A DNA stretch of 64,000 nucleotides from an uncultured Lachnospiraceae bacterium (GTDB lineage Bacteria; Bacillota; Clostridia; Christensenellales; UBA1242). A program made the position numbers and the translations under genes. Below the pieces are notes generated by a model. It was given only the letters and a program-made list of their open reading frames with translations. It was not told the origin of the DNA and made no database searches. The stretch is taken from NCBI GenBank assembly GCA_964437615.1, contig CAYTHL010000002.1:62-64061 (forward strand), given 5' to 3'. How positions within the stretch are numbered: the stretch's first letter is position 1; every line of letters starts with the position of its first letter. Positions 5,157 through 42,585 of this stretch are shown here, in pieces.

Positions 5157-5166
5157 TACTTTTTTT

Positions 5167-26173: not shown

Positions 26174-26211
26174 AAAAAAACGCACCTGTCCTACATGACA
26201 AATGCGTTTTT
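26174..26211 (-). terminator. Intrinsic terminator ending the phage-like operon
   Basis: AAAAAAACGCACCTGTC-CTACAT-GACAAATGCGTTTTTG, with runs on both sides, 47 nt downstream of the last cluster gene. Confidence 0.7.
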
Positions 26212-26257
26212 GTAAAATTATTTAGTTGTAAATTTTAGAAAAATATTTAGTTGTTAA

Positions 26258-26602
26258 TTAGTTGTTGTTTTGCGTAGAAGAATTTTTGTCCGTAGTTGTT
26301 GACGCCGAATTTTCGGTTGTTTCGTTTGTGTTGCTGGTAATGTCATCTTTGTCGCTTTCGGTGTTATTTTTATCTTCGGCGGCTTGCAAGGTTTGAGTTG
26401 GTTCCTCGGTGGAGGTTACGCTAGATGGAGTAAGCAACCCCAAAACTACAAGCACACTGCATACGCCGGTTACTATATCCATAATATAAACTTCGTCTAT
26501 TGTCTTTTTATAGTGACTGGCAATTATACTTGCCACAATAAGTATTGCCGAAACTAAACTTATCCAAAACCCCACCGTCTTCATTTTTTGTTTAATTGAC
26601 AT
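26258..26602 (-). CDS. Two-TM holin-like protein with an acidic S/T/N-rich tail
   Basis: 114 aa. KMKTVGFWISLVSAILIV... (K..FW..L.SA pattern seen in small Firmicutes phage holins), a second TM, and last position in the operon. Confidence 0.45.
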   Translation of the reverse strand: MSIKQKMKTVGFWISLVSAILIVASIIASHYKKTIDEVYIMDIVTGVCSVLVVLGLLTPSSVTSTEEPTQTLQAAEDKNNTESDKDDITSNTNETTENSASTTTDKNSSTQNNN

Positions 26603-27224
26603 ACTGCCCTCCTTGCGGCTGTGTTTGCGGCTCGGCTACGTCTTGAACTTGTTGCGGCTCGGATGTAACCGCTTCGGCTAGTATTTGCTGCTCGGCAACA
26701 ACTGAAGTTTGTTGCTCGGAGGCAATAACGGCTTGTTGTTGCTCGGTTGATGCCTTAAATTCTTGTTGCTGCCCTAAATACTCAGTATTTTGCCCAGTTG
26801 TTTCTTCAATTTGCTTAGGTTCTACTTCGGACAGTTCCACAGGGTTTTGCGCCGGATAAGATAAAACGGGTGACCCATTTTGCACATGACACTCGTTAAT
26901 GAGTATCATATTGGTTGACAAGTTTTGGTTTTCTTTTGACAGCACGGATGGTTTTTCGATTTCGGATTTAGTAGTAGCTATTGTTTCGGCAAGTTGGCTG
27001 TTGCCGCCAATGCCTGCTGTAAACTTTAAATCTTCGACGTCTTCTTTTATTTCTTCTACTTTTTTTAGGCTCTCGCCCAGTTTTGATATAACTTCTTGAT
27101 ATTTTTCTTCGCGTTTATTGTTGCTACGTATTAATATTATTAAAAGTGCCACAAAAAGCATTGCCCAAATTCCACTTTCGCTAATAATTGTTAATATTTG
27201 GCCCCAAAGTGATGAAATTTCCAT
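26592..27224 (-). CDS. BhlA/UviB-like holin-domain protein with a long Q/E-rich C-terminal extension
   Basis: The N-terminal GIWAMLFVALLIILIRSNNKREEKYQEVISKLGESLKKVEEIKEDVEDL parallels BhlA (GPFAVLF....K.SKERE.KL...). The remaining ~140 aa are Q/E/T-rich. Confidence 0.45.
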   Translation of the reverse strand: MEISSLWGQILTIISESGIWAMLFVALLIILIRSNNKREEKYQEVISKLGESLKKVEEIKEDVEDLKFTAGIGGNSQLAETIATTKSEIEKPSVLSKENQNLSTNMILINECHVQNGSPVLSYPAQNPVELSEVEPKQIEETTGQNTEYLGQQQEFKASTEQQQAVIASEQQTSVVAEQQILAEAVTSEPQQVQDVAEPQTQPQGGQYVN

Positions 27225-27225
27225 A

Positions 27226-27474
27226 TTACTCCTTTAAAATGCTAACCAAATTTTCTATTCTGGCAAGCAAGTATCCGCCGCCAATCTCTACAATTTGGCT
27301 ATATGCATAAGTTTGCAAATTTTTGCTAAGAGTGTATTGTTTATGAGCTTCTGTTAGTTGTTTTTTTATAACATTTCCACTGCTAATATACAAATTAAAT
27401 AGGTTATCGTCCACTTGCTTGCAGGTTACGCCGTCGGCCTTACCAAGCTTGGCTAGTTTTGTGTAAAAAATCAT
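27226..27474 (-). CDS. Hypothetical phage-cluster protein
   Basis: 82-aa ORF whose start overlaps the upstream gene's stop by 4 nt. Confidence 0.5.
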   Translation of the reverse strand: MIFYTKLAKLGKADGVTCKQVDDNLFNLYISSGNVIKKQLTEAHKQYTLSKNLQTYAYSQIVEIGGGYLLARIENLVSILKE

Positions 27475-29486
27475 AATTCAAACTCCACAGTTAGCTTGCC
27501 ACTAACCCCTTCGGTATAGTTTGTTCCAAGCAAATTGTACTTTTTTGTAGTTACAGTGTAGTCTGTATCCGCCAATGCCACATTTTCTATTAGAGCATTA
27601 GTTAATTTTAAATTAAGAGCCTTTACTCCACTATTTGTAAATATAAGTAAAGTATCTTTTAAAAACTCAAAATCTACAATAGTAGATATATCTAAGTCTG
27701 ATGGAAAACCATTTGTAAATTCTTGCGGATTGTTATAGTTTGTTAAACTGTAAATTTTGTATGGTGCCTCGTCCTCGTTTTCGTAATACTGAATTAAGTA
27801 CATAAGGTCTGTGCTTATCCAGTTTTTAACGCCCTCGGTTAAAGATATGCTGTACCTGTATACTGTAGGGTAATAAAACAGCCATATGTATGGAGACACA
27901 GATTTTTTCGCAATTACAGCCCTACTTTTACTTTCTAGGCTTACCGTATCGGTTAGCAGATAGTTTGCAACTAAAGAATATCCTACATCGGTAGTTCCGT
28001 CTGCGTAATAACTAACAAGTCTGTATGTAGATGTTGAACTAGCGTAATTATCGGTAATAAAAACAATAATAGAGTCGCAAAAACTGTTTTTGTAGATGTC
28101 ATACATATATACGGCCGTAGGGCATACTGTAGATGCGACGCTAGTAATACTAAATATATTGTTTTCAAATTTCGCGTTACAAATTAGCGGAACCCGCTCT
28201 GTTGTGTTTAAAATCCCTATAATGAACTCACCAGATTTAGTAGTTTCTATTATTCTAAAATCTTGCCAACTGTATTCTGCACCATAGCTATTGTAGGCAT
28301 CAAAATTTGTGCTTGCTAAACTATAGGTACTATCACTAAGAGTATAAACTCTTAGATATGGACTTGCAGAATACACAGCAAAAAGATAATTTTTAAACAT
28401 AATGATATCGGCTAAATCTTGTGTTGGAACGCTTACTGTAAGCCTTGAAAGCATATAGTTATCATTTGCATATATGTACAAAGTGCTTCCGCTAACAAAT
28501 GCCAGTTTATCTCCATCGCGGCTTACCCACCTAGGTGTTGTTGCATCTATATCTGCATCAAAAGGACTTGCAATATAATCTGTAAAGTCGGAAGCATAGC
28601 TTTTGTAAATATAATCAGTTTGCAAATTTTGCTCTAAATCGGCTAGAGATACAACTTCTTTTATATATTCTCCGCAATCTATAGTATTGTTAGACTGAGA
28701 GGATACAATATTTTCTTGTTGTATACATTCTTTATATTCCAACAAATTTATCCTAGCAATTGGAGTTTTATCCATTAAAACAACAACCTCTGGCGTGATG
28801 CCAGTATCTAGGTCAAAATCTATTTGTAGTTGTGGGTTTCCATCTGCATTGGCAGAAGCCGTAAACGAACATGTATACTCTTCGCCTTCACGCGGAACAT
28901 TTCGTTTTAAGCATACATTTGGCTGCAAGTTATATCCGCGCATAGCAGTAAAGGCTGGCGCCGTTATACTTCCCTCACCCAAAATGGCTTTTATAAGTCT
29001 GTTTTCGCCAGCAATTAAATACGCGTTACTATCTTCTTGCAAACTCAAATAGATAGTTACCCTAATTAGCAAACTTTGGCCTTGTTCTTTTACAATATTG
29101 CAAACATCTCCATCACTATCTACAATTTGTATATGGTTACATACATCTGGATTGTTCTCTGCACTTGCAGTGATGCCTATTTCACAAAAAGATAATCCCT
29201 CTGCTGTGTCTTCATCTAAAGAAACTACCCTTTTTACATACAGCTCGCCCTTGCTTGGGTCACACTGCAATTCTTCGAGTTCTGATGGATAACTTGCAAC
29301 ATAATTACTCAATTTACTAGAAAGATAATCTACTTGCCCAGTACCATTGCCAAAAGCAAAATATGTAGCATAGGGCTTTAGCCCATCCATAATATTTTCA
29401 AATACTTTATGTGTCATTGTATTAAAAAATGTATAACTACTTTCGCCTAAAATAATCTCAAATTTGTTATGTAGTTTAATATTCAT
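27471..29486 (-). CDS. Large phage structural protein (tail or receptor-binding candidate)
   Basis: 671 aa, beta-rich and Y/S/T-rich. Sits in the distal tail-gene block. No catalytic motif recognised. Confidence 0.4.
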   Translation of the reverse strand: MNIKLHNKFEIILGESSYTFFNTMTHKVFENIMDGLKPYATYFAFGNGTGQVDYLSSKLSNYVASYPSELEELQCDPSKGELYVKRVVSLDEDTAEGLSFCEIGITASAENNPDVCNHIQIVDSDGDVCNIVKEQGQSLLIRVTIYLSLQEDSNAYLIAGENRLIKAILGEGSITAPAFTAMRGYNLQPNVCLKRNVPREGEEYTCSFTASANADGNPQLQIDFDLDTGITPEVVVLMDKTPIARINLLEYKECIQQENIVSSQSNNTIDCGEYIKEVVSLADLEQNLQTDYIYKSYASDFTDYIASPFDADIDATTPRWVSRDGDKLAFVSGSTLYIYANDNYMLSRLTVSVPTQDLADIIMFKNYLFAVYSASPYLRVYTLSDSTYSLASTNFDAYNSYGAEYSWQDFRIIETTKSGEFIIGILNTTERVPLICNAKFENNIFSITSVASTVCPTAVYMYDIYKNSFCDSIIVFITDNYASSTSTYRLVSYYADGTTDVGYSLVANYLLTDTVSLESKSRAVIAKKSVSPYIWLFYYPTVYRYSISLTEGVKNWISTDLMYLIQYYENEDEAPYKIYSLTNYNNPQEFTNGFPSDLDISTIVDFEFLKDTLLIFTNSGVKALNLKLTNALIENVALADTDYTVTTKKYNLLGTNYTEGVSGKLTVEFEL

Positions 29487-29512
29487 AATTTCTCCTTAAG
29501 TTTTATGTAATT

Positions 29513-31936
29513 TTACTTGGTAATGCAAGAAATTGGATAACATATTAGTCTTTCGCCAAAATCACTATTTGTTCTTGTGTATGTATAACATGACTGTAGT
29601 GAAAATATGCCGCATTGGTCAGATTTTGACCCACCGTAACTCATTATCATATTTGGCAAATTAGGATCATCTTTTAGATAGTAATATTTGGCTGGAGACC
29701 ACAATAAAATCTTACTCGCATAGTAACCATTATCGTTACCTGTTTTGTAAATACAAAATGGCAAAAATCCAGTTTGCGTGTCTGCATAGTTCATCGCTAA
29801 AGCACCATTTACTTCGTATTGTAAAGTAAAAGCATTAGTATAACCTGTACCTAGAACGCTGAGTTTTTGGTCTGGATCCTTGTTGTCTATCACCAAAAAA
29901 TTAAGGTCGGAATCTATTAAAACACCATCTACCAAAGTTAGCATGCCCATTGTTATATTCTCTAGACCAAATATCTTAATTCCGGTGGTATTTTTTGTGT
30001 TACCTTCCGAATAGAATAGCCCAGCCTTGTCTAACACTCCGTTGGTTGGGGTACCATACATATTGTAATATCCAAGACCATAACAATATAAAGAGCGAGT
30101 ATCTTTAAATAAAAGTAAAAACAAAATTTCTATGAGCGTGGTTACATGAAAGTTTAGTGTTGTATATCTAGACCCCTTTAGTTGATCCATGGTTAACAAA
30201 ATTTCTTCGTGATTTATTTCGCTTCCGCCAGACTTTCCGCTACAACAATAAATTGTGTTGTCTTTAACAACTCCATCGTACGCCCCTATATAAATTTTGT
30301 CGTACTCTACGCCTTGCCTAAAATGAGAATTACAAGCATATCCATCTTTGGGTTTGTTACATATACTTAAAACATATTCGTTCTGTTTGGTCTCTATCAA
30401 GTTTTTACTACCGTCCCAACTTAAATCAAATTTATAGTATACCTTTGGAAACTCTATCATTACATCGTTTTCGCCGCTGTAAATATCCGCATCAGTTCCG
30501 TCTATAAATTTTGAATAATCATTAGGGTCTAAATATCCAATAACTACTCCAGAATTAATAAGACATGGTTTTATTTCGTTAAATGGCCACCTTTGCAACC
30601 AGCCATTATCTTGCAATGTGTGACTTTCAAAATCAAAAGCAGCTGGCGTATAGTCGGCACAATCTCCGCCATACTTTATCTTTTGGTCAATTCCGTTTAC
30701 ATTTGCATCTAATATTTGATCTACGGTTAATATATAGTTTATCTCTGGCACTATTTTGTAGTCTTCTACTTCTATTGTTGCTTTTGCTTGCAGATTTTCG
30801 GTAATTCCGCTAAGTAGAGCGTCAAAATTGATCAAGTTTTTAAATATCTGTAAAGAAATTTCAGCCGATAGATTGTCTACCAATAGATCTTTAAATGGCC
30901 TTAAATTTACATATCTATTTATAATTATTGCATAAGTTGCAAGAAGTTGTTCAACAAAGGTAGAAAGATCACTCTCTTCTTGAGACATAAGAATATAGTT
31001 AGATCCATTTGTATGTGTGCATATAACATAAACTTTTTGACTTTCTGGCGCATCGGCAACCTCTACCTTAGAATAACTGCCAACAGGCAAAGTAAATGCC
31101 GACGCTGATCCCATAACATGGTTTGTCATGCACCTATATAAAGGCTTGCCATCTTTTATATAGCAAACTATTATATCTTCGGAGTAACTATTAGGGCAAA
31201 CACGTGCCGATACCCAGCTTACGCCTATATCTAACCTTGTCTCTTGGCCCATGGCTCCATTATCGCTTATGCTATAATATAGATTGCCTATACTATCCAC
31301 CCTAAAAAAGTAAACTTCATCATCCTTTTTACTTTTTGCATAGCAGTGACTAATTCCGTTAGCCACCAAACTAAAATCACTTGCAAGCAAAGACTTTTCT
31401 TCTACAGATGTTGTAGCAGCATAAATTTTGCCACTTTCGGTATAACTAACAAGGACATTTTCTCCTAACGTTAAGCCTCTGATATCTACAGAATTTAAAA
31501 CATTTACTTCGCTTATAGCTCCCCACATTACAAGACTGCAAGATGTGATCTTGCAAGAGTAATTGTTGCTTAAAACAGTTATCCTTGCTGCCAAATTTAC
31601 ATTGCAAACTTTTGCTGGCGTATAAGCTTTTGTAATAATAAGCTGATTTTCACCACTTGCTATTGATCGCTCTTCAGATACTACGGGCACACTGTCAACT
31701 AAGATTTCTACTGCAACATCTCCTGTTGTATTAGAAAGACAAATTAGTTGTAGCTGAAAGCAACTTGCACCAAGTAGATTAATTTGCCCTAGGCTTATAG
31801 TTGCACTAGAAGTAACTTGCATATTTAAAATAGGATTAACAAATTCAACAGTCGTTGTAGAACCACTTTGATTGATGGTAGAGGCAGTTTCTTCTAGCTC
31901 CTTTGTTTTTATATATGCGTATTTTGCATAATCCAT
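29513..31936 (-). CDS. Putative tail fibre/spike protein
   Basis: 807 aa and the largest structural ORF. The C-terminal ~400 aa are Gly/Tyr/Asp/Cys-rich, consistent with a receptor-binding module. Call based on position and size only. Confidence 0.4.
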   Translation of the reverse strand: MDYAKYAYIKTKELEETASTINQSGSTTTVEFVNPILNMQVTSSATISLGQINLLGASCFQLQLICLSNTTGDVAVEILVDSVPVVSEERSIASGENQLIITKAYTPAKVCNVNLAARITVLSNNYSCKITSCSLVMWGAISEVNVLNSVDIRGLTLGENVLVSYTESGKIYAATTSVEEKSLLASDFSLVANGISHCYAKSKKDDEVYFFRVDSIGNLYYSISDNGAMGQETRLDIGVSWVSARVCPNSYSEDIIVCYIKDGKPLYRCMTNHVMGSASAFTLPVGSYSKVEVADAPESQKVYVICTHTNGSNYILMSQEESDLSTFVEQLLATYAIIINRYVNLRPFKDLLVDNLSAEISLQIFKNLINFDALLSGITENLQAKATIEVEDYKIVPEINYILTVDQILDANVNGIDQKIKYGGDCADYTPAAFDFESHTLQDNGWLQRWPFNEIKPCLINSGVVIGYLDPNDYSKFIDGTDADIYSGENDVMIEFPKVYYKFDLSWDGSKNLIETKQNEYVLSICNKPKDGYACNSHFRQGVEYDKIYIGAYDGVVKDNTIYCCSGKSGGSEINHEEILLTMDQLKGSRYTTLNFHVTTLIEILFLLLFKDTRSLYCYGLGYYNMYGTPTNGVLDKAGLFYSEGNTKNTTGIKIFGLENITMGMLTLVDGVLIDSDLNFLVIDNKDPDQKLSVLGTGYTNAFTLQYEVNGALAMNYADTQTGFLPFCIYKTGNDNGYYASKILLWSPAKYYYLKDDPNLPNMIMSYGGSKSDQCGIFSLQSCYTYTRTNSDFGERLICYPISCITK

Positions 31937-31945
31937 ATGTTCCTC

Positions 31946-33376
31946 CTATAAAATATAGCTATAATCTATTTGAAGATCAGTTAAATTTAATTCTCCTACA
32001 CCGCTTATACTAAAGCTTAATTTTTTGCCAGATAGTCCAAGCACAAAAACTTGCTCCTTGGTGTTTGCTTTTAATTTTAATATTTTACTTTCGTTTTCGG
32101 TAAATACAGTTATGCTAGCATCTGTAGAACATAAAACTCTCAGCTTTGTAAATGTCTTGTTTAAAGCATAAGGCTTTAAACTAAGTTTATTAGTTAAATA
32201 AAAATATTCTTGATTATTGGCACAATATTCTATGTTTTTTGCATCTACAAGTATATTTTTTGCGTTTTTTATTGATAAATCATCACATAAATAACAAACT
32301 CCGCGCAAATTATCGCAATCTAGCGCAATACAGCATTTAATTCCACTGATTAATCTTATATTTTCTACATAATTTGTATTTAAATTGAGTGCAATTACAG
32401 CCTCAACTGACATTGAATTTTGTATTATATTTGCACAAAGATAATAGACATTATCTAAACACACCGCCTTACAATTACTATTATTTTTTGCAAACAAATT
32501 GTCTATTTGACTATATAGCTTTTTTGCAGTTAATCCGTCAAAGCTATACAACCCATCAGTTGACAAGAAGACAATTTTATCTCCACATAAGCAGATAGAC
32601 TGGGGATAAATTTTGCCAGTAGATACAAACAATTTGCTCTGCTTAAAGTTGCTGGCAGTTGACGAAGAATATATTTTTATTATTGCTTTTTGTCTTATCA
32701 CATAAATGTAATTATCTAAACTAAAAACCTTTATAACTGCGCCTAAATTATCTACAAAACTAATTTCACCAGCATCACTGGCCGACACGCTCCAATTGCT
32801 TGGGTCCTTATCTTCGCTATAAAGAACTTTGTAAGGTTCATCCTCGCATGTTACAAATAGCCTCTCCATGCCTACAGCCATACTTGTTACCTTAGGAGCG
32901 TCCAAAACTTCTAGAGGCAAATTAATACCATCCCATATCCACATTTCGTCAGATACAGAACTTATTAACAGCAAATTACCCTCTTCTGTAATATAGGTTT
33001 CAAATATAGGGCTGCTAGTTAGTTGGATATCTGCAAGTTGGGTAATTTGCGGCAAACTGGTGTTTACTTGCATGTAATAAATTTTTAATAATGACGAACA
33101 GATAACCAAATATTGTAAAAAATTGTTTCCGTCATATAACTCAAAAGGCACAATTTTTTCTACCCCACCTATTTCTAAAAACTGAGATTGTAAATTAGAA
33201 TAATTATCAAAATTTGAAAATAACGGCATTAAAGATGCCAGATTTTGCACTTTTCCCTCTTTAATTTGCAGATTTTGGATGGTAGATGCAATTCCATACT
33301 TAGAAACATCCTTATCCTCAGTATTTAAGCCTAAATTGTAATCTTGAATACAAAACTGTGTATAACTTTGAGACAT
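31946..33376 (-). CDS. Phage tail structural protein (nozzle/tubular-B-like position)
   Basis: 476 aa. Repeated beta-strand pattern (...IYVIRQKAIIKIYS...KIVFLSTDGLYSFDG...). The start ATG overlaps the upstream TAA (TAATG). Confidence 0.35.
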   Translation of the reverse strand: MSQSYTQFCIQDYNLGLNTEDKDVSKYGIASTIQNLQIKEGKVQNLASLMPLFSNFDNYSNLQSQFLEIGGVEKIVPFELYDGNNFLQYLVICSSLLKIYYMQVNTSLPQITQLADIQLTSSPIFETYITEEGNLLLISSVSDEMWIWDGINLPLEVLDAPKVTSMAVGMERLFVTCEDEPYKVLYSEDKDPSNWSVSASDAGEISFVDNLGAVIKVFSLDNYIYVIRQKAIIKIYSSSTASNFKQSKLFVSTGKIYPQSICLCGDKIVFLSTDGLYSFDGLTAKKLYSQIDNLFAKNNSNCKAVCLDNVYYLCANIIQNSMSVEAVIALNLNTNYVENIRLISGIKCCIALDCDNLRGVCYLCDDLSIKNAKNILVDAKNIEYCANNQEYFYLTNKLSLKPYALNKTFTKLRVLCSTDASITVFTENESKILKLKANTKEQVFVLGLSGKKLSFSISGVGELNLTDLQIDYSYIL

Positions 33377-33939
33377 TAAAACAAACTCCTTGATGCAAAT
33401 TTTAGGCCTTTATATTTTTTTAGCATGTTTTTAAGCCCCGCTTTGTATTTTTGCTCCCAAATATTGGCCTCGGTATAAAGCATCTTTATTGCATAGTACT
33501 CGCTTACGGCGCCGTAGCAAATAGTCCTTGCATCTAGCCCAAGCGGCAACAAAACACTATCATCTAAGCTTGTTAACTCTTCTGGCAAATAACAATATTC
33601 TACGTAATATAGTTTGTTCATTTCTCCAACCACAAGGTAATCGTCGGTTGCATAAAATCTAATTTTTTTGCCAGTGTCGTCTTTTACTGCTTTAATTGAG
33701 CATGGTGTATGCCAAAAATCAGAAAGTAGCAGCGTACCGTTTTCGTCACTAACTAAATCTTGTGTGCATTTATAACACAAAAAACTTTGAGCAATATCTG
33801 TTAGCACAAAATTTACTAGTGTAATATAGAGCTCTACATTAGTATTTTCTTCATCATCTTCGCTTAAATTTGCAAGATAATTTATTGCGCTTTGGTCGTC
33901 TAAAATTAAGGCAATATTTTTTATAATTTCACTTAACAT
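33376..33939 (-). CDS. Putative head-tail adaptor/connector protein
   Basis: 187 aa, lying between the capsid and tail genes. Size and position resemble podovirus adaptors. No motif support. Confidence 0.3.
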   Translation of the reverse strand: MLSEIIKNIALILDDQSAINYLANLSEDDEENTNVELYITLVNFVLTDIAQSFLCYKCTQDLVSDENGTLLLSDFWHTPCSIKAVKDDTGKKIRFYATDDYLVVGEMNKLYYVEYCYLPEELTSLDDSVLLPLGLDARTICYGAVSEYYAIKMLYTEANIWEQKYKAGLKNMLKKYKGLKFASRSLF

Positions 33940-34261
33940 AATTTTCTCCTAAAAAATTGGTTTGATTAAGTGTATACTTTGCGTAATCTACGGCATTTTG
34001 AATAGATTTCTGCTGTTTTTTACTGTTTTTCTCTTCAATTTTGCGAAAAATGAAATTACTATTCTCTATTTTTGTAGCATTAATTTTATCTATAATTTGC
34101 GGAGAAAGCGGAAAATCAAATTCCATACATTTTCCACCAAAATTTGTGTCGTGCAGTTCGGCTTTCCCGGTTTTTTTGTTTAAATACAGTTTGTAAGATG
34201 GCCTAATTTCCTTTATTCGGTGCCAAAGGCCAAACATATCATAAATTTCTTCAAGTTCCAT
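33929..34261 (-). CDS. Hypothetical phage-cluster protein
   Basis: 110-aa ORF directly after the MCP hairpin. Confidence 0.45.
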   Translation of the reverse strand: MELEEIYDMFGLWHRIKEIRPSYKLYLNKKTGKAELHDTNFGGKCMEFDFPLSPQIIDKINATKIENSNFIFRKIEEKNSKKQQKSIQNAVDYAKYTLNQTNFLGENYVK

Positions 34262-34308: not shown

Positions 34309-35505
34309 TTAATTTTCTTTAATTCCAGTAATCATCGCTTGTCCGCTTGGTTTGTTGCAGATAATGTCGGCATATTTAACTAGGGTTGCGCTATATGTAG
34401 GCTTGTTTTGAGCCTGCTTAATTACTCTGCCGCCCTCGTCTTCTAGCCATTTCCAGTCGCATAGTTGATGCAGGTTAAACTCTTTTGTGTTTAACAAATA
34501 CATGGTGTTAGCTGGAGCAAATCTATCCGAAACCACAGGTATTCCGTTGTAAGAAATCGCCTTGTAACCGCCAGCAAGCTCCATAACATCTATGTTAGAG
34601 CGGTAGTTTGCCAAATAATATTGGTATCCACGCTTAACGCCAGCCGAGCAAACAATAAAGTCCACTTTGCTGTCGGCATTTTCGTCCAAAGCGTCAATTG
34701 CAGTTTGGATGATAATATCGTCAATTTGTCCAAGTGTAGTTGCATCTTCTGTTACAGTGCTAATATCTTTCATATATGGTATCATCCAGCCATAGGTTGA
34801 TCTTTCTAAGCCATACAAACTGCCGGTATCCTTAAAGATAGCGCCAAGACCAGTGATTTCTTTGTTGTAGCTGCCCTGAACGCAAAGATAGCTACCAACC
34901 AATGCGTTTACGGTTAGGCTAGACGCACTAAAGGTAACAACCTTATTTGCCCTATCTACACTGGTAATTCTTAAACCAGTTGCACCATTAACGGCAACCC
35001 CAGCACTGCTGACAACGTCTACAATCATGCCCTCTATAAGGTTGGTTGTTTTGTCTACAGTTACTGTAGATGCGCTGTTTGCCTCAATTTTTGCAACAAG
35101 GCCAGTGCCGTCGCCATAAAGCATTCTGCCAAAGTTGAACGAACTAGCTTTTATAAGCCCTTCCATTTCGCTGTTAAGCAGATTTACAAAAGCACCGGCA
35201 GAATTTTCTGACGCTCTTATAGCTTTGTCGGAAATCTCTATTTTGCCGTACAAGTTTTTTAAAGTTAACACAAATTGAGCATAGTTGTTGCCGCCGGCTG
35301 TTGGCAAATCGCCGTCCTCTGTGCCCGCACCAATGCCACCATTTAGGCCATAAGGTGCAAGTTTTACAATTTCTTTACCCCAAACATCAGATGTGGTTTG
35401 GTTAATTCTTGCTAAAAGCGGATTTATTGATGTATTTAGTTGATCGCTTACAATGCCAAGATAAACTTCTTTTAACGCGTTATCCGCTGTTGATAATGTT
35501 ACCAT
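34309..35505 (-). CDS. Major capsid protein
   Basis: 398 aa downstream of portal and scaffold. The N-terminal ...ALKEVYLGIVSDQL...PLLARI...GK.I.....G and the ...NLYGKIEISDKAI... pattern are typical of Firmicutes-phage HK97-fold coat proteins. Confidence 0.7.
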   Translation of the reverse strand: MVTLSTADNALKEVYLGIVSDQLNTSINPLLARINQTTSDVWGKEIVKLAPYGLNGGIGAGTEDGDLPTAGGNNYAQFVLTLKNLYGKIEISDKAIRASENSAGAFVNLLNSEMEGLIKASSFNFGRMLYGDGTGLVAKIEANSASTVTVDKTTNLIEGMIVDVVSSAGVAVNGATGLRITSVDRANKVVTFSASSLTVNALVGSYLCVQGSYNKEITGLGAIFKDTGSLYGLERSTYGWMIPYMKDISTVTEDATTLGQIDDIIIQTAIDALDENADSKVDFIVCSAGVKRGYQYYLANYRSNIDVMELAGGYKAISYNGIPVVSDRFAPANTMYLLNTKEFNLHQLCDWKWLEDEGGRVIKQAQNKPTYSATLVKYADIICNKPSGQAMITGIKEN

Positions 35506-35516
35506 TTTTTCTCCCT

Positions 35517-36251
35517 TTATTTTTCTAACATTTTACTAAAAATCTTGTTCGCATCCGAAAGCGTCTTTGGCTTTTGGTAGTTTGGAGCAACAACAACACT
35601 GCTGCTGCCGCCAGATATAACCTTTGGCGCATCTATTGTTGCGAGTGATTTTACGTAATTGTCTATGACCATTTTATTAACTTGATCATTTTGCAATACA
35701 TATTGTTTAATATAATCTGGGTTAGATAATAATTCGGCAGGTTTAAACTTAGACTTTGCCGTTGCAAGTCTATAAGCTATCTCTATTCCGCCCTCAATTT
35801 CAGCTAAGTCTTTAGCTTTTATTAGTTCGGCCTTTACATCCTTCAAATAATTGATAGCGTCTGGATTATTTTCTGCAAATTTAAGCAGTTTTTTAGATAA
35901 AACCGCATCAAAATCATCATTTGAGCCGAAATTTTGTTCACGACAGTCGTTTTCACCCGATATATTTTGCTGCAGATTTTGAACATTTTGCTGCTCTGTA
36001 TCTGCAGATTGCGGGGCGACAACATCTTCTTCGCTCGATTGCTCCGTACCACTCATTTTTCGCTCTAGTTCTGCCAATTTTTGGCTTTTGCGTGTAAATT
36101 CTGCTTGTAAATTTGCATAAGCTTTACTTAAACTTGTTGCGTCCTTAAATTTGCCCATAATAGAGCCTTCCGGCAAATCTGGTTGTGCACCACCAATTTC
36201 TGCCTTTGGTTGTTCTATTTCTTCCATAAATTCTCCTATTGCCATTTGCAC
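35517..36251 (-). CDS. Scaffolding protein
   Basis: 244 aa, acidic and helical. GKFKDATSLSKAYANLQAEFTRKSQKLAELE motif. Lies between portal and MCP. Confidence 0.65.
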   Translation of the reverse strand: MQMAIGEFMEEIEQPKAEIGGAQPDLPEGSIMGKFKDATSLSKAYANLQAEFTRKSQKLAELERKMSGTEQSSEEDVVAPQSADTEQQNVQNLQQNISGENDCREQNFGSNDDFDAVLSKKLLKFAENNPDAINYLKDVKAELIKAKDLAEIEGGIEIAYRLATAKSKFKPAELLSNPDYIKQYVLQNDQVNKMVIDNYVKSLATIDAPKVISGGSSSVVVAPNYQKPKTLSDANKIFSKMLEK

Positions 36252-36310
36252 AAAAACGCAAAATGGCTATTAAAAAATGTTAAAAAGTATTAATTTTTGT
36301 TAAATTTTAC

Positions 36311-38266
36311 CTATTTATTGTTTAAAGCGTCTAAATTTTCTTTGGATAAAAGCAAATTCTCTGCATTGTACTTTGCTAGCATAATTTTATGTTTGCGGAT
36401 ATGCTCTAAAATTTGCTCTCTGTGTTCAGCTGAAAATTGTTCGCATTCGTCCGAAATTAAAAATCTTGTATGTTCTTCTATATGTATTTTGTGGTCGTCA
36501 ACTTCTATCGGTTCCTTTAACTTTATTAGTTTTAAGTTCTCCTTTGTTGCCCTTTTGGTTTGCAAAATAGATATGTCTTGCGCGTTTTCCCAACTACCAA
36601 ACCCAAGATTGTCTAAAATTTTTGCGCGAGTGTGATTGTTAATTTTACCGTCTTCGCCCGCAAGCAAACCTTTGTCGTAAAGTTCTAGCAGCATCTTTCT
36701 TCTTGATGCAGTGCTTTCGGCCAGTTCGTTGGTGGTATCCAGTATCACGTCGTCGCTAGTTAGGTCGGCATTGCTCCAGTAGTAAACCTCTATTGCCCCG
36801 CTTTCATCTGTCATTTGGCTCAGTCTTCGGGTGGTTGCGTACTGCTTATACAAACGGATGACCATTTCGGCAATTTGCTTTACAGCTTGCCTAATATATT
36901 CGGCAGTAACCGACAGCCGAGTTTCGTCTTGCTCAATTAGCAGCGTTATGGCAGAGCCGCTAGACACTGCCGACGGCAAAGTGCTATCCCTCATAATTTC
37001 GCTTACGCCACCTAAGATATTAAACTCGGTAAGCAACTTATCTTCTTCGTCGGATATTTCGGTTGGAACGTTGCCCGCATCCATAAAAGTTGGCGGCTCG
37101 CTGCCAGCCCTATATACAATAACTTTGCCCGGTGCCAAGCCCTCGTCTTCTAGACTATCCACATCTACCGAGCCATCTTCTACAGTAAGCACTCCGGCAG
37201 AAAGCCTTGCTATAAACTCGTGTTTTCTGTTTTTTAGTGCATTGTATGCACGCTGCACTGGAATGCACCTTTCTATTATACTTGTCCCCCAAAAACTGCC
37301 TATCTGAGAATTGGATATTTGCCTTATAAATGGATACCCCCTCTGCCCATTGCTTGCAACGCTATATGGCAAGTTGCCGTCGTAAACAAGTTTGTTGCCG
37401 GCAACTATAGTTAGCTTGCCATTCGGCAAGGTGGCAGACGGCTTTTGATAGTACTCCAGAACAAGCACATGGTCGTGCAATTTTGTGTGCGACAGTTTGG
37501 ATATATTGCTTCTGCCAGCCACTCCGCTATTAACGGCAACTTCATCGAACACCAAACTATCTATATCTGAGCCTTGCATACTAACCCCATAAGTTTCTTC
37601 TACCTTTTTGGCGGGGTAGGCCTTGGCGTGAATAATTGACATGCAACTATCTACGTTCGAACTAGAACAATTGTCTGGGAAAATTTCAAACGGCGAACAA
37701 ATGCTTATATCTACATCGCCAGCCTTTATTTTTGTGTCGCCCGCAAGGGCAATTGTGTCACCAAGTTCACTGTTCCAGCAAACTTTATAAAAGCAAGTTC
37801 CGGTAATTTCGCTCCAAGTGGTTGCCTCGTTAATTATATCGGTCAGTTTTAATCTGGTAAAAAGTGATGAAAGTATGCTTTTGCTAAGTTTGGCACAATA
37901 AAGGTCGGCTTGCTCTGTACTGCTTGGACGCACCGATGCCGTTGGCCTAACTTTGGCCAGTTTTGCAAGTCGCATTTCTACAATTGGCGCAATATGGTTA
38001 AAAACTTCGCGCGTTTCCCAAATGTAATTTTTTTCAAAATTTTCTATTTCGCCTTTGGGCGAGATACACGCGTACTGATTGCCTATCATGTAGTTCATAT
38101 TAAGCTCCCAAGCAAGTTCATAACTTTTGCGTTCTTTGCGGCGCCGCTCAAAATCGGCATAAATGCTGCTTACTATAACCTTATCTTCTTCGGCAGAATA
38201 ATAAAATTTTTTTGTAGCGGCATCTTCTGTGTTTTCGGCTATTATTTCTTCTTTTTTATTTTTCAT
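36311..38266 (-). CDS. Portal protein
   Basis: 651 aa, downstream of TerL. ...YELAWELNMNYMIGNQY... and its overall size and position fit a portal. Confidence 0.75.
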   Translation of the reverse strand: MKNKKEEIIAENTEDAATKKFYYSAEEDKVIVSSIYADFERRRKERKSYELAWELNMNYMIGNQYACISPKGEIENFEKNYIWETREVFNHIAPIVEMRLAKLAKVRPTASVRPSSTEQADLYCAKLSKSILSSLFTRLKLTDIINEATTWSEITGTCFYKVCWNSELGDTIALAGDTKIKAGDVDISICSPFEIFPDNCSSSNVDSCMSIIHAKAYPAKKVEETYGVSMQGSDIDSLVFDEVAVNSGVAGRSNISKLSHTKLHDHVLVLEYYQKPSATLPNGKLTIVAGNKLVYDGNLPYSVASNGQRGYPFIRQISNSQIGSFWGTSIIERCIPVQRAYNALKNRKHEFIARLSAGVLTVEDGSVDVDSLEDEGLAPGKVIVYRAGSEPPTFMDAGNVPTEISDEEDKLLTEFNILGGVSEIMRDSTLPSAVSSGSAITLLIEQDETRLSVTAEYIRQAVKQIAEMVIRLYKQYATTRRLSQMTDESGAIEVYYWSNADLTSDDVILDTTNELAESTASRRKMLLELYDKGLLAGEDGKINNHTRAKILDNLGFGSWENAQDISILQTKRATKENLKLIKLKEPIEVDDHKIHIEEHTRFLISDECEQFSAEHREQILEHIRKHKIMLAKYNAENLLLSKENLDALNNK

Positions 38267-38465: not shown

Positions 38466-38770
38466 CCCTTACCCTCCATAAGTTGCTTTATTAATTTATT
38501 TTTAAGCTCCAAAAGTTGCTCATCTGTCATAGAAGATAGTTCGCCAGAACTTTTGCCCCGCATATCTAAAAGCATTTTTATTGCCAGCATGTCTGGCGCC
38601 ACAAAATGAGACGACACCTTTTTCTTTATTAGCGACAGCTTGGAGCCTTCGGCTGAGCTGCTCTCATCTTTTATTGGCACAAACTCTTCTACGGTTTCGG
38701 TGTAATAAAATCCCGCAGCCATTTTTATTAAAACATCTTCTATTTTTTTGTCTAGACTTTTGGTCTTCAT
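38462..38770 (-). CDS. Hypothetical protein, weak small-terminase-like C-terminal pattern
   Basis: 102 aa. HFVAPDMLAIKMLLDMRGK is reminiscent of the ..PPD..A.IFWLKNR.. segment of some TerS proteins. No SD. A -10-like TATATT lies 6 nt before the ATG. Confidence 0.35.
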   Translation of the reverse strand: MKTKSLDKKIEDVLIKMAAGFYYTETVEEFVPIKDESSSAEGSKLSLIKKKVSSHFVAPDMLAIKMLLDMRGKSSGELSSMTDEQLLELKNKLIKQLMEGKG

Positions 38771-38779
38771 GCCACAAAT

Positions 38780-38839
38780 ATATCAAACAAATTTTAAAAA
38801 AGAGCCAAACACTGACAGCATTTTTAAAATAATTTTTGC
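38780..38839 (-). promoter_or_regulatory. Cluster-specific promoter-like motif, site A
   Basis: Minus strand AAAAATTATTTTAAAAATGCTGTCAGTGTTTGGCT, 20 nt, TATATT, 6 nt, ATG (38770). The upstream 33 bp are ~94% identical to site B. Confidence 0.5.
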
Positions 38840-38932
38840 TAACAATAAAAACAAAAAATTCTGCTTAAATTGACAAATTTTGACCAATTTTTCATATTTT
38901 GCAAGCATATTTTGCAGTTTTTTAAAATTTGC

Positions 38933-40375
38933 TTAACTTTGCCAAAGACGATTTTGTTTAAGTTTTTTATATAGCCGCTCTTTATCTCTTGCAATAGGAG
39001 ACGACATAGGTTTAGTTGGAGCCTCTGGCCTACTCATTATGTAATATCTAAGTTCGTCTAGGCTATGGTCGTCGCGTTTAATTGGGTTTTCGCCCTCTCC
39101 CCAATAATAGTTTTTTATCTCCCTAATTAAGTTTGTACAGCAAGAAAAAATAAACAGTCTGCTTTGACCATCTACATTTCTAAAATAACTTTTTACTCTG
39201 TTTATGCCCGAAAATAAGTCTTTATTAACTCGCGGATTTGCCAAAATTCCATTGTCATAAAAAAGTTCGGTTACACTTTTGCTGCTAGCGAGCGTTCGCT
39301 GATTTGCCGCACTATCTATTAAAGCGCCATACATGCCGTTGCGCTCATGCTTCCAGTTAAGTTCGATGCATTTTTCTTTTATCTTGTTTGCGTGATAAAT
39401 TACATCTTTGCCCGCCGCAAAATGCTCGGCAACAACATACACATTGCCGTCATAGTCCACTGCATACCAATGCGCCGATAGCGGATTATTTAACCCCGGG
39501 TCGATTGAAATTGTATCTTGCCAATCTCTAGGTATATTAAACGGCTCTATAACATGCACAGATGGGTCGAACTCTTTATATACTAGCGAATTGTTTTTGT
39601 TTAAAAACTTGCCATAACGGCGCGCCTCCAATTCTTCCACACTCATTAAGCTTGTCATGCGCGCAATTTCTTCCTTGTTTAAAAACGGGTTGTCAGCCCA
39701 CTCCATAAATTGATAAAAAACCTGGTCATCTCCACTGGTGTTGAGATATATTTCGTCGTAAATATATGTAAGCCCTTTAAGCGGCGTCATTGTGCCAAAA
39801 ATATCTCCGCACCTGTCTAGTACACGCATTCGGCACTCAAAATAAATGTCTTGCGGAGGCTCTTCGTCAAACCAAACAAAATCTAGCGAGGCGCCTTGAA
39901 ACTTATCCCGACCTTCTTCACAGCTTTTAAAGTAAATTCTGCTTTGCCCGCCAAAGACGTTTTTAATAACAATACACTCTATAACGCCATATTCTGGAGC
40001 ATCCTTTTTGCCCGTCTTCATTACAATGTCTTCTACCCAATTTCGGTTTAGATATTTTAAAATTTTGTCTTGTGCAACTTCCTTTTGAACCCTTGTAGAC
40101 AAACTTACAACCCAGCCTACCACATTTGGCTTATTTTGTCTGAACGGATGATTACCACGCGCTAGCCAAATTGCCTCTACGGCGCCACACTCGGTTTTGC
40201 CACTTCGGTTGCCGCCAAAAACCCACCTGTTGCGCTTTTGGCACTTATGAAATAGAAGCTGTTTATTATGCACAATTGGCCCAGCATTGTAGCAAGCTAG
40301 CGCGTTATAGTTGCGGCGCTCCAGTTCGTCTAATATTTGCATAACTTTTTTTACAGCATTTAATTCTTCGGACAT
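38933..40375 (-). CDS. terL: Terminase large subunit
   Basis: Walker A FGGNRSGKTECG, Walker B LDFVWFDEEP, and nuclease-domain TISIDPGLNNP. The track start at 40405 is a TTG. The ATG at 40375 has an AAGGGA SD. Confidence 0.85.
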   Translation of the reverse strand: MSEELNAVKKVMQILDELERRNYNALACYNAGPIVHNKQLLFHKCQKRNRWVFGGNRSGKTECGAVEAIWLARGNHPFRQNKPNVVGWVVSLSTRVQKEVAQDKILKYLNRNWVEDIVMKTGKKDAPEYGVIECIVIKNVFGGQSRIYFKSCEEGRDKFQGASLDFVWFDEEPPQDIYFECRMRVLDRCGDIFGTMTPLKGLTYIYDEIYLNTSGDDQVFYQFMEWADNPFLNKEEIARMTSLMSVEELEARRYGKFLNKNNSLVYKEFDPSVHVIEPFNIPRDWQDTISIDPGLNNPLSAHWYAVDYDGNVYVVAEHFAAGKDVIYHANKIKEKCIELNWKHERNGMYGALIDSAANQRTLASSKSVTELFYDNGILANPRVNKDLFSGINRVKSYFRNVDGQSRLFIFSCCTNLIREIKNYYWGEGENPIKRDDHSLDELRYYIMSRPEAPTKPMSSPIARDKERLYKKLKQNRLWQS

Positions 40376-40501
40376 ATTTGTTCCCTTGTGTTTTATTTTT
40401 TGCAAAAATAATCAAATTTACGTCAATATTAGTCAGTTTTACATAAAATTTTTATACTTTTTTCTATATTTTTACTTACTTTATTATGCTAAAATGCAGT
40501 T

Positions 40502-41494
40502 ATGAAAAGAAAATTCGCTAAATTTAAGTCAATTTTTGTAGAAATTACTGCATTTTTTGTTATTTTTTGTTGTCTTTTTGCCTATTTTAGCCCATTTTCT
40601 GCCAAAAATGACAAAAATGAAACAAATGCGGCAGAAAACAAACTTGTATATGCCAAGGCTAAAGAAAACTGCATACTTTATAAATCATCAAACCTAGAAA
40701 ATAACTTGACTAATGAGTATTTTGATATTCCGCTAAGTTATTTTGTTACCATTTTGGCCACCGTAAGTGACACCGTTTATAAAGTAAGTTATAAGGAATT
40801 TGTGGGTTACTGCAGCGCAGACAACTTAACAATTGTAAGTTTTACTCCTAGCACCTCGACTTTAGAAAATATTACTTTTGACATATGCTCTGATGCTGGA
40901 ACTCAAATTTGGAGCTTACCTAGTGACCAATCTGGAAACAAGTTAACTACTGTTCCTGCAGACACGCTTTGTTTAGAATATATTGCAAGTATCACGGGCG
41001 AAATACCCAGTGGTGGTACCACCAATCTTTGGTATTACGCTAGGTATACCCCAGCAAGTTTCAGCACCAAAGTTTACGAGGGATATATTTATAGTGAGGC
41101 TGCAACCAACTTAACCCATATACCAACCAATTTGGAGCAAGAAAATGAAGAAGTAACGGCGCCACCCATTGATGGAACAATAACACTAAACACCACGCTT
41201 AGAATTATATTGCTTTGTTTAATCTGCCTGCCATTTTTGATACTATTTATTATTACTGTAATAAAAAGTAGACGCAGCTTTGCTCATAAAAAACAGGCTA
41301 AACAGCAAGAAAGCAAAGCAAGCGCAAAAGTTGTTACTTTGCCACAAACTAGCGCAAAAAAGCCAAATTTAGATAGTCTTGCAAAGCGCCAATTTGTAAA
41401 AAAACCTAAACCCACAGAGCCAGTTATGGACGACGACTCTATAGAGATTGTCTTTCCCGATTATAGTTTTGTGGATGATGACGACCTATTGTAA
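40502..41494 (+). CDS. Bitopic membrane protein with two SH3b-like repeats (opposite strand to the cluster)
   Basis: 330 aa. N-terminal signal anchor and two ~70-aa segments resembling bacterial SH3 domains (...ILYKSS...YKVSYKEFVGYCSADNL; ...WYYARY...YEGYIYSEAATNL). C-terminal TM, then a K-rich tail ending in an acidic stretch. Extended -10 TGCTAAAAT lies 6 nt before the ATG, and there is no SD. Confidence 0.5.
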   Translation: MKRKFAKFKSIFVEITAFFVIFCCLFAYFSPFSAKNDKNETNAAENKLVYAKAKENCILYKSSNLENNLTNEYFDIPLSYFVTILATVSDTVYKVSYKEFVGYCSADNLTIVSFTPSTSTLENITFDICSDAGTQIWSLPSDQSGNKLTTVPADTLCLEYIASITGEIPSGGTTNLWYYARYTPASFSTKVYEGYIYSEAATNLTHIPTNLEQENEEVTAPPIDGTITLNTTLRIILLCLICLPFLILFIITVIKSRRSFAHKKQAKQQESKASAKVVTLPQTSAKKPNLDSLAKRQFVKKPKPTEPVMDDDSIEIVFPDYSFVDDDDLL

Positions 41495-41533
41495 AAAATG
41501 AATAGCCCTTAGCAAATTTAAAATTTTTTCCTT

Positions 41534-42169
41534 TTATTTACAGCATTTGGTTGCATTTGCAATTAGGTTTTTGTAATTTTGCTTGCAGTGTTCCAGCATC
41601 CAACCCTCGCGTTCCATTTGACACAGCAAAAATTCTATACTCCAATTGCTAGTTTTACAAAAATCCAAAAGTTGCAAAAGAGCATCGTTTGCCCACCTAA
41701 AAACGGTGCGCTCGTCAACATCAAATTCTTCTGAAAGATAGCTTGTTCTTTTATGTTTATAAAATTTTAACTTAACCACCTCTTGCAATTTGTGCGGCAG
41801 GCTTGCAACCATAGTATCTATTAGACAATACAAATTAATTAGGCTAACTTTGCGGTCGGATAAATCTATAACCGACTGCATTTGGCTATACGTTCCGCCA
41901 GATAAATCTCCAAAAATAAACGAACCGTCTAGCGGACTGCTGGCTTTTTGCGCAATAATAGTGTCTACCACCTTTATTATGTTTGGCAAATTGTCATGAA
42001 CATTTAGCAGCGTTTTAATTATTGCCAAATGCTTTATTTGCAGGGTAGTTAAATCTTTTAAATTTTTACAAATTTTGCTATTTTTTGCAGTTTTTACGCT
42101 GTTTTTCACAAAATATTCTCCGTTTTTGCAGTTTTTTGCTATACTATTTTTTGTTAATTTTTGTATCAT
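41534..42169 (-). CDS. Sigma-70 region-4-like / phage late-transcription regulator candidate
   Basis: 211 aa. LPHKLQEVVKLKFYKHKRTSYLSEEFDVDERTVFRWANDALLQLL resembles a sigma region 4 / ArpU-RinA-type HTH. Strong AAGGAGA SD. First gene of the cluster. Confidence 0.45.
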   Translation of the reverse strand: MIQKLTKNSIAKNCKNGEYFVKNSVKTAKNSKICKNLKDLTTLQIKHLAIIKTLLNVHDNLPNIIKVVDTIIAQKASSPLDGSFIFGDLSGGTYSQMQSVIDLSDRKVSLINLYCLIDTMVASLPHKLQEVVKLKFYKHKRTSYLSEEFDVDERTVFRWANDALLQLLDFCKTSNWSIEFLLCQMEREGWMLEHCKQNYKNLIANATKCCK

Positions 42170-42248
42170 TTTGTCTCCTTTTTAATTTGTCATATTTTGT
42201 CGCTTTTTGTCAAGTTGGGGCGCGTTTATATTGCCTTGTTACACCCCT

Positions 42249-42310
42249 ATAATAAACCCAAATAAAATTGCTTGGGTCAAACACTGACACAATTTTAAAA
42301 TAATTTTATT
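42249..42310 (-). promoter_or_regulatory. Cluster-specific promoter-like motif, site B
   Basis: Minus strand AAAATTATTTTAAAATTGTGTCAGTGTTTGACC, 20 nt, TATTAT, then a ~73-nt leader to the regulator ATG at 42169. Confidence 0.5.
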
Positions 42311-42340
42311 TGGCCTATTATTTTATTTTCGACAATGTGT

Positions 42341-42356
42341 TAGAACAAATGTTCTA
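42341..42356. promoter_or_regulatory. LexA (Cheo/SOS) box
   Basis: TAGAAC-AAAT-GTTCTA has perfect 6-bp palindromic arms and matches the Gram-positive GAAC-N4-GTTC consensus. It lies in the divergent spacer between the cluster regulator and the giant ORF. Confidence 0.6.
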
Positions 42357-42585
42357 TACAAAATTAGCACATAAAACTGGACACCGTTATGTCTAGTTTT
42401 AAATTTTTTTAAAAAATTTTTTTGAAAAAATGTAAACTAAACGGTAGTTTGCAGCAAAACAAACTGTTTGTAGCTAAGGCAAATAATTTACAAGGCAAAA
42501 TAAATTAAAAAACTTCAAAATAATCTACAAGATTTTTTTATCCATTATTTTTTTATAAAAAATAACAAAATGTGCTAAAATTGTT

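Follow-up and report, generated by a model that had tools for sequence, protein, structure and literature searches.

We analysed a 64,000-nucleotide stretch of DNA (the window) from an uncultured Lachnospiraceae bacterium (GTDB lineage Bacteria; Bacillota; Clostridia; Christensenellales; UBA1242; assembly GCA_964437615.1, contig CAYTHL010000002.1, positions 62 to 64,061 of the forward strand). Between positions 26174 and 42360 the window holds a ~16-kb cluster of phage-type structural genes, which we regard as a domesticated podovirus-derived particle locus and, probably, as a gene transfer agent (GTA)-like element. Read along the minus strand, the cluster encodes a regulator, the large terminase (TerL), proteins of 102 and 69 amino acids (aa), a portal, a 244-aa scaffold-like protein, the major capsid protein (MCP), proteins of 110, 187, 476, 807, 671 and 82 aa, and two holins (Table 1). 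All open reading frames (ORFs) are intact and many of their stop and start codons overlap. An earlier sequence-only reading of this DNA had listed these ORFs with their sizes, overlaps and a clean terminator, and an ORF check and folding of the terminator hairpin confirmed the list. Its description of a single minus-strand array held for the ORFs it had named, but one gene within the span, for a 330-aa membrane protein, lies on the plus strand.

Table 1. Features of the cluster and its borders (window coordinates).
Feature	Coordinates	Strand	Evidence or remark
Multi-pass membrane protein, 297 aa	25150..26043	-	Adjoins lysis end, also where farther neighbours differ between loci
Intrinsic terminator closing the array	26174..26211	-	15-bp stem + U7; -19 kcal/mol; z = -4.3; 0/200 shuffles as stable
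Second holin-like protein, two transmembrane (TM) segments	26258..26602	-	phrog_297 holin 3.6e-8; Phage_holin_1 9e-4
BhlA-family holin, long Q/E-rich tail	26592..27224	-	Holin_BhlA 1.4e-13; one TM segment
82-aa protein	27226..27474	-	No family match; small ORF at same position in relatives
Distal tail/fibre candidate, 671 aa	27471..29486	-	Inferred from position
Distal tail protein, 807 aa, lineage-variable	29513..31936	-	Residues 418-802 match phrog_5302 tail protein, 2.4e-28
Tail nozzle/hub, 476 aa, P22 gp10 / T7 gp12 class	31946..33376	-	AlphaFold2 pLDDT 87.4, pTM 0.86
Head-to-tail adaptor, 187 aa	33376..33939	-	AlphaFold2 pLDDT 76; Foldseek PDB matches
110-aa protein	33929..34261	-	Nearer relatives only; no family match
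Major capsid protein (MCP)	34309..35505	-	NF033394 capsid_maj_Podo 283 bits (cut-off 80); phrog_14242 2.6e-60
Scaffolding protein, 244 aa, predicted	35517..36251	-	Inferred from position and composition
Portal, P22/SU10 type	36311..38266	-	P22_portal (PF16510) 7e-15; phrog_156 9e-30
Cys-rich protein, 69 aa	38256..38465	-	C-x4-C ... C-x2-C/H; between TerS-like gene and portal
TerS-like protein, 102 aa	38462..38770	-	Downstream of TerL; C-terminal part of TerS profiles only
Large terminase (TerL)	38933..40405	-	Terminase_6N 4.5e-16; Terminase_6C 3e-5; phrog_2 2.5e-29
Divergent membrane protein, 330 aa	40502..41494	+	Between regulator and TerL; N- and C-terminal TM segments predicted
Sigma-70 region-4-like regulator, 211 aa	41534..42169	-	Sigma70_r4_2 6e-4; phrog_36 4e-7; weak ECF-type NCBIfam matches
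LexA (Cheo) box-like palindrome GAACAAATGTTC	42343..42354		~175 nt upstream of regulator ATG
Giant open frame	42671-64000, past window end	+	>7110 codons; lipoprotein-like N-terminal signal (LFCAIGLTAC); S/T/Y/N-rich

Genes that would make the cluster an autonomous phage were not found. Scans across the 64-kb window recovered no integrase, repressor, replication gene, tail tube, sheath or tape measure, which upheld the absences listed in the sequence-only reading; likewise, no integrase, excisionase, repressor, primase or replication gene lies within the 26 kb to the left or the 21 kb to the right of the cluster. No tRNA was found in the window, and a search for att-like direct repeats returned only short AT-rich chance matches. 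A 15-mer present at both borders (26166 and 42448) was considered as an att site and treated as chance.

For comparison, we scanned GTDB with one genome per species. MCP relatives were found in 377 species, and the loci of the best 80 of these 377 representatives, whose MCPs are 62-82% identical to that of the window, were fetched (designated by L numbers). Wherever the contig covers it, the core order in these loci is TerL, small protein(s), portal, scaffold, MCP, adaptor and nozzle. TerL itself retains an intact Walker A motif (GGNRSGKT), is 58-77% identical across loci and likely starts at the ATG at 40375; its match to the PBSX terminase model was sub-threshold (24 bits; cut-off 105).

The small terminase had been reported as missing upstream of TerL. 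Indeed, none lies there, but a TerS-like gene was found downstream. Among 22 orthologues of its product, 16 match the phrog_309 TerS profile (best 8.6e-9) and 13 match the phrog_23444 TerS profile. The window copy aligned to positions 195-245 of the 319 profile positions and lacks the N-terminal part, which in TerS proteins is the usual place of the DNA-recognition domain. In the adjacent 69-aa protein the cysteines are invariant in an alignment of 15 orthologues and the gene keeps its position in many related loci; this four-cysteine, zinc-ribbon-like protein may assist packaging and make up for the absent TerS N-terminal domain. A fusion of the TerS-like and Cys-rich proteins in some lineages was considered and rejected, as the longer TerS-like proteins have an internal insertion instead.

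Almost every locus that covers this region has the scaffold candidate between its portal and MCP genes. The window protein matched no family in PHROG, Pfam or NCBIfam, Prp and other protease families included, and PHROG and Pfam scans found no prohead protease family in the cluster. For the window MCP, NF033394 was the sole NCBIfam match; N4-gp56 was not matched at E values up to 0.1, and an exact-protein look-up found no identical record.

Sequence searches against PDB with the nozzle, the 807-aa protein, the 671-aa protein and the MCP gave nothing useful, and structure prediction was therefore needed for the tail proteins. The top 19 Foldseek PDB matches of the adaptor were all phage adaptor or connector proteins, mostly podoviral, among them those of KHP30, Pa223, PhiM1, SU10 and crAss001 and T7 gp11. 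The nozzle model, built with AlphaFold on 25 homologues, matched podoviral nozzles with E values from 2e-21 (Pa223, TM 0.72) to 1e-7, including P22 gp10 at 8e-13 and, further, VP1, GP4, Sf6, Pam1, SU10 and T7 gp12. Among the 80 loci, most of those that reach the nozzle position have kept the gene. For the 807-aa protein, which is confined to nearer relatives and absent in L024, tblastn gave weak matches to phage tail proteins (from phages of Clostridioides, Bacillus and Butyrivibrio). The 671-aa protein had no family, PDB or phage match (tblastn against phages included); it was found in 19 of the 80 loci, mostly in nearer relatives, at 24-47% identity and a dN/dS of 0.15-0.42. Thus, the earlier assignment of the three large ORFs to the tail stands by fold for the 476-aa protein, by profile for the 807-aa protein and by position for the 671-aa protein.

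Taken together, the P22-type portal, the adaptor and nozzle folds, the podovirus MCP family and the absence of a protease family in the scans describe a P22-like structural module, in line with the podovirus-like gene content proposed from the sequence. Because portal, adaptor, nozzle and distal proteins make up a complete short-tailed design, the absence of a tail tube does not reflect a deletion.

The receptor-binding end of the tail is modular. In L024 (13564-13636) the nozzle gene is followed directly by a holin gene and both large distal tail genes are absent, while the distal position is occupied by a 1580-aa protein in L019 and by a 302-aa BetaGal_ABD2-like (carbohydrate-binding-like) protein in L044. 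The lysis end also varies: L044 (14355-15329) and L092 (Maliibacterium; 16851-17756) carry a DUF7934 (PF25588) protein of ~300-325 aa where the window has two holins. This domain was present in 11 ORFs among 18 related loci scanned, with its position looked at in L044 and L092, and the DUF7934 protein may be a lysis protein.

The 211-aa regulator is presumed to activate the structural operon. It is kept upstream of TerL across loci, and the small regulators of distant loci are homologous to it (hhalign 98.7%, E 2e-16). The palindrome upstream of it is the sole GAAC-N4-GTTC site in the 64-kb window, where 0.34 are expected by chance. An exact site was found upstream of TerL in 21 of the 49 related loci with enough upstream sequence; 20 of these precede the orthologous regulator by 70-350 nt (mostly 120-230 nt), L070 is ambiguous, and versions with one mismatch occupy the same place in ~10 more loci. 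The consensus across loci, CGAAC(A/T)(A/T)ATGTTCG (canonical form CGAACAAATGTTCG), is that of the LexA (Cheo) box as known from Firmicutes. Ten Christensenellaceae-type loci have an invariant box inside a conserved non-coding region, and in L019 and L022 the regulator is its only downstream target because the upstream gene points in the same direction. The possible SOS link raised by the sequence-only reading is thus supported by a Cheo box at the same position in the window and in 21 of the 49 related loci. From these sequences we infer a circuit in which LexA would repress the sigma-like activator, which would in turn drive the structural and lysis operon.

Other elements were noted in the same regions. 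The conserved non-coding region of the ten species (L044:4020-4220 and equivalents) also contains a TGACA-N5-TGTCA palindrome, the repeated motifs TGTCATAT / ATGACATA, a TTTGTACAAA palindrome and a TATAAT element; these extra motifs suggest a second DNA-binding regulator. In the window, a 30-nt repeat (80% identical) lies at 38806-38835, upstream of the TerS-like gene, and at 42278-42307, upstream of the regulator. The two copies share an exact 12-nt core (TGTCAGTGTTTG on the minus strand) that has no further occurrence in the window and was absent from the 80 related loci; the repeat may act as a promoter or operator specific to this lineage. TTGWCGTAAA, considered as a late-promoter motif, was dropped as its position is not conserved, and scanning for generic sigma-70 promoters gave no useful signal, with 70 sites found where 59 were expected. 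The dinB-type polymerase IV gene at 5128-6435 on the plus strand has no GAAC-N4-GTTC site upstream, even with one mismatch allowed; dinB is typically within the SOS regulon.

We then considered how the cluster is distributed and inherited. Its MCP has more than 6461 homologues in a metagenome and genome protein collection, many of them on contigs of 100-770 kb, and carriers among the best 80 species are named Clostridia, Christensenellaceae or Ca. Borkfalkia. The cultured Maliibacterium massiliense carries a 41%-identical MCP in the same gene order on its 2.42-Mb chromosome (LR026983.1, 2215459-2236634). The locus measures ~16 kb in the window compared with ~10 kb in Christensenellaceae-type loci. 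With a crude ORF caller, TerL, portal, MCP and nozzle were all intact in 40 of the 46 loci with enough flank; the remaining six look like artefacts of the caller because tblastn gives full-length matches.

At least 8 species share the window's flanks, with RNase J and the 297-aa membrane protein on one side and the regulator, the divergent membrane protein and the giant ORF on the other. Different families have the cluster in different chromosomal neighbourhoods. For pairs of 8 genomes, protein identity followed that of RNase J (r = 0.83 for portal, 0.95 for TerL and 0.79 for nozzle), and conservation of the MCP matched that of RNase J, with mean identities of 75% and 77%, respectively. dN/dS (NG86) was 0.03-0.16 for MCP, 0.03-0.18 for TerL, 0.04-0.23 for portal, 0.15-0.66 for the tail genes and 0.05-0.12 for RNase J, values that are rough because dS was saturated (about 1 or more) in all pairs. 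We also examined 133 flanking or unmatched ORFs within ±10 kb of 18 loci: the 25 commonest Pfam families were housekeeping families and DUF7934, with no recurrent integrase, replication or lysin family among them. Vertical inheritance of the cluster with its host, near relatives keeping it at the same chromosomal site, thus appears well supported by sequence comparison.

The sequence-only reading had called the cluster chromosomally fixed and not a decaying remnant, and had suggested a same-locus comparison, dN/dS estimates and a search for att repeats. These analyses agree with it: 377 species carry an MCP relative, near relatives share flanks, divergence tracks RNase J, head genes with intact ORFs evolve at a dN/dS of ~0.03-0.2 under purifying selection (with dS saturated), and no att repeat exceeds chance. 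Neither were lysogeny or replication modules contiguous with the cluster, nor was the cluster absent from relatives.

Among known systems, P22/SU10/Pa223-like podoviruses have the same portal family (PF16510) as the cluster, the same folds of adaptor and nozzle and the same order portal-scaffold-MCP-adaptor-nozzle; unlike the cluster, they are autonomous phages with genomes of 40-80 kb that include replication, lysogeny or early genes. No free counterpart of the cluster was recovered. A megablast search with the entire cluster found no match among 50,697 phage genomes, and the best MCP match in this set, from actinophages, was 30% identical. IMG/VR lists as viral 11 short contigs (L081-L091, 5-19 kb) with the same gene order; one of these, L082, has long flanks, which include host genes and repeat the chromosomal layout. 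Virome surveys probably count the cluster as phage.

PBSX is an SOS-inducible element whose sigma-like positive factor Xpf drives the late operon and which lyses its host through a holin. Like PBSX, the cluster is a Firmicute chromosomal element that is fixed, at a site shared by near relatives in the case of the window, and the sigma-region-4-like regulator with its conserved upstream Cheo box would, judged from sequence, correspond to the PBSX arrangement. In contrast, PBSX is of the contractile myovirus type, with sheath, tube, tape measure and baseplate, none of which was matched by PHROG and Pfam scans of the window cluster, and it has an Xre repressor and an endolysin. PBSX packages random host DNA of 13.4 kb (PMC12946183).

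Full-text literature searches gave one relevant paper (PMC12946183, Nat Commun 2026). It shows experimentally that FpGTA of Faecalibacterium prausnitzii forms ~40-nm capsids with 8.4-8.9 kb of random host DNA, encoded by two loci ~125 kb apart: a 10.5-kb operon 1 (TerS without DNA-binding domain, TerL, portal, scaffold, MCP) and a 5.5-kb operon 2 (tail and lysis). The same study reports a TerS without DNA-recognition domain for both RcGTA and FpGTA. It also describes GTA-type packaging of random chromosomal fragments from Christensenellaceae metagenome-assembled genomes (MAGs), with fragment peaks at 4.1 and 7.1 kb for HGM11616 sp900761075 and at 6.3 kb for QANA01 sp019420265 and no locus named (PMC12946183). 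The sequence-only reading had held that a short-tailed, chromosomally fixed particle would be unusual in Firmicutes; the cluster is indeed not of the contractile PBSX type, but FpGTA provides a published precedent (PMC12946183).

FpGTA and the window cluster are both chromosomal, structural-only, podovirus-like clusters of gut Clostridia, genus-wide in the case of FpGTA. Both have TerL, portal, MCP, conserved hypothetical proteins, a TerS without obvious DNA-binding domain and holin-based lysis. They differ in the capsid, compared here by family name: the FpGTA MCP RCH50849.1 is named 'N4-gp56 family' by NCBI and that of the window belongs to NF033394. The gap between portal and MCP holds a Prp-like protease gene in FpGTA (PMC12946183 Supplementary Data 2) and a scaffold-like gene in the window cluster. 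Further, FpGTA has two loci and an endolysin, compared with one contiguous locus and no recognised endolysin in the window, and the host orders differ. When the FpGTA capsid was sought among distant MCP relatives (high-GC representatives, cluster names), no Faecalibacterium was found; the labels of these relatives were Clostridia, Clostridiales, Maliibacterium and one Hyphomicrobiaceae. By these indirect criteria of family names and gene content, the window cluster is not a member of the FpGTA family.

The alphaproteobacterial RcGTA likewise consists of a head-and-packaging cluster without replication or integration genes that is inherited vertically under purifying selection. This inheritance extends over an entire order or class; the RcGTA TerS does not bind specific DNA sequences, and expression of the genes is influenced by LexA. 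Unlike the window cluster, RcGTA is of the siphovirus type with tail tube and tape measure, comprises several loci, is regulated by CtrA/GafA and is built from unrelated protein families.

It is thus well supported that the cluster is a domesticated, vertically inherited particle locus of podovirus origin, whose control region has a conserved LexA box and a sigma-like regulator. We go further and consider the cluster to be, probably though not with confidence, a domesticated, vertically inherited, podovirus-derived, GTA-like element of Christensenellales-type Clostridia. It has two of the features that mark GTAs: phage-like structural and packaging genes on the host chromosome without replication, integration or lysogeny genes, inherited vertically under purifying selection. 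The gene content, the truncated TerS-like protein and the published packaging in the same bacterial family together suggest GTA function with random packaging of host DNA; a head capacity below the size of the locus, release, and delivery to recipients would be part of such function.

In such an element, LexA bound to the Cheo box would keep the sigma-region-4-like regulator off. DNA damage would lift this repression, and the regulator would then turn on the single long operon. Procapsids would assemble from scaffold, MCP and portal, and TerL together with the TerS-like protein would fill the heads, mostly with host chromosome; we propose that the loss of the N-terminal, DNA-recognition part of the TerS-like protein leaves packaging with little sequence specificity. 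The adaptor, the nozzle and the lineage-specific distal tail proteins would complete the short tail, and the two holins with a wall hydrolase, host-encoded or other, would free particles from a lysing subpopulation.

The main rival is a PBSX-like killing or altruistic-lysis role, in which SOS-induced lysis would release short-tailed particles that harm related competitors without productive transfer, DNA packaging being kept only since head assembly requires it. This would account for the SOS input and sigma-like activator, which match PBSX logic as generally known, for the holins, and for distal tail proteins that evolve fast and are swapped between lineages as receptor-binding parts are. We nevertheless consider it unlikely: the genes for TerL, portal and the TerS-like protein rank with the most strongly constrained of the cluster, which argues for selection on packaging itself, a podovirus tail lacks the contractile or puncturing machinery known to kill in the absence of DNA ejection, and PHROG and Pfam scans found no toxin or lysin domain in the tail proteins.

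Less probable still is a mobile element, be it a helper-dependent satellite or capsid-forming island, or a temperate phage whose other modules lie beyond the sequences examined. Intact structural genes under purifying selection are also seen in mobile phages, IMG/VR lists 11 related contigs as viral and the neighbourhoods of the cluster differ between families. However, the window yielded no integrase or recombinase, CI/Cro switch, replication module or att repeats, and no integrase or replication family recurs among the 25 commonest Pfam families in the flanks of the 18 loci; near relatives with saturated dS keep both site and flanks, divergence tracks RNase J, and even L082 from IMG/VR has the same chromosomal arrangement with host flanks. 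Capsid-forming phage-inducible chromosomal islands (cf-PICIs) resemble the cluster as chromosomal elements encoding their own capsid, portal and terminase. They are mobile, with integrase, regulatory and replication modules, and have no tail genes; in contrast, the cluster has none of these modules, sits at a fixed site and encodes adaptor, nozzle and distal tail proteins. That the cluster is a decaying cryptic prophage remnant of no current function is effectively refuted. The lysogeny and replication genes are all gone and an endolysin is not recognisable, as such decay would predict, but all window ORFs are intact, as is the core in 40 of 46 loci with the rest probable caller artefacts, dN/dS is far below 1 (though with saturated dS), and conservation over 377 species is accompanied by that of non-coding regulatory DNA.

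Several points weigh against the GTA-like reading. The locus is known here from its genes, and its particles, packaged DNA and transfer are predictions. Purifying selection, roughly estimated as it is, would when taken alone also fit an active phage. The nearest phage capsids come from genomes of ~45 kb, so that a head holding the whole 16-kb locus is possible, and the published fragment peaks of 4.1-7.1 kb from Christensenellaceae MAGs are not linked to the window locus. Neither the cluster nor its surroundings, the commonest flank families of related loci included, yielded a recognisable endolysin. As for control, Maliibacterium and the group L002-L024, which has RNase J synteny, lack the box (at up to one mismatch), which makes the SOS input widespread rather than universal, and the window box could also serve the giant ORF because the intergenic region is divergent. 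A more far-reaching version of the GTA-like reading combines several claims: that a podovirus was domesticated anciently and kept throughout Christensenellales diversification as an SOS-triggered GTA, independently of FpGTA, PBSX and the alphaproteobacterial GTAs, and that it is the locus behind Christensenellaceae packaging in faecal virus-like particles. We hold this combination tentatively, as falling just short of probable.

GTA-like elements with a known genetic basis are few, and the Gram-positive ones are only PBSX and FpGTA; if the GTA-like reading is true, the window locus would be a third, independently derived. Its carriers are hundreds of species in a heritable, health-associated gut order, one of which, M. 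massiliense, is in culture, and its regulatory input, a LexA box followed by a sigma-like activator, can be read from sequence. The packaging of GTA type seen for Christensenellaceae MAGs has in it a candidate locus. If the GTA-like reading were confirmed, DNA-damaging drugs could mobilise chromosomal DNA across the Christensenellales. Virome pipelines are affected as well, as fragments of the cluster are already listed in IMG/VR as viral contigs.

At the borders, the 297-aa multi-pass and the 330-aa bitopic membrane proteins accompany the cluster despite differing farther neighbours, and they may have a role in immunity, receptor function or lysis control. The 297-aa protein has its own promoter-like site past the array terminator and is possibly associated with the cluster. 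Homologues of the 330-aa protein occupy the same position in ~18 loci at 36-51% identity; the protein at this position in L044 matches it only weakly (E 0.001). No Pfam domain was found in the first 2000 residues of the giant ORF. A protein with 24-29% identity to its N-terminal region is encoded at the equivalent position, and divergently from the regulator, in L001, L002, L004, L007, L012, L016, L018, L020, L024 and L082. An 840-aa protein upstream in Christensenellaceae-type loci was considered as a relative of the giant ORF and showed no detectable relationship.

Pfam scans of all sizeable window ORFs showed that the left flank consists of housekeeping genes: prfA, prmC, rpmE (L31), dinB, glmS, glmM and the genes for HU, a UvrD-like helicase, MgsA, SigK, a U32 peptidase, an O-methyltransferase and RNase J. 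The sporulation sigma factor gene (19844-20566, minus strand; SigK model NF004471, 261 bits, above cut-off) lies ~6 kb from the cluster, to which no link was found; its presence indicates that the host is a spore former or the descendant of one.

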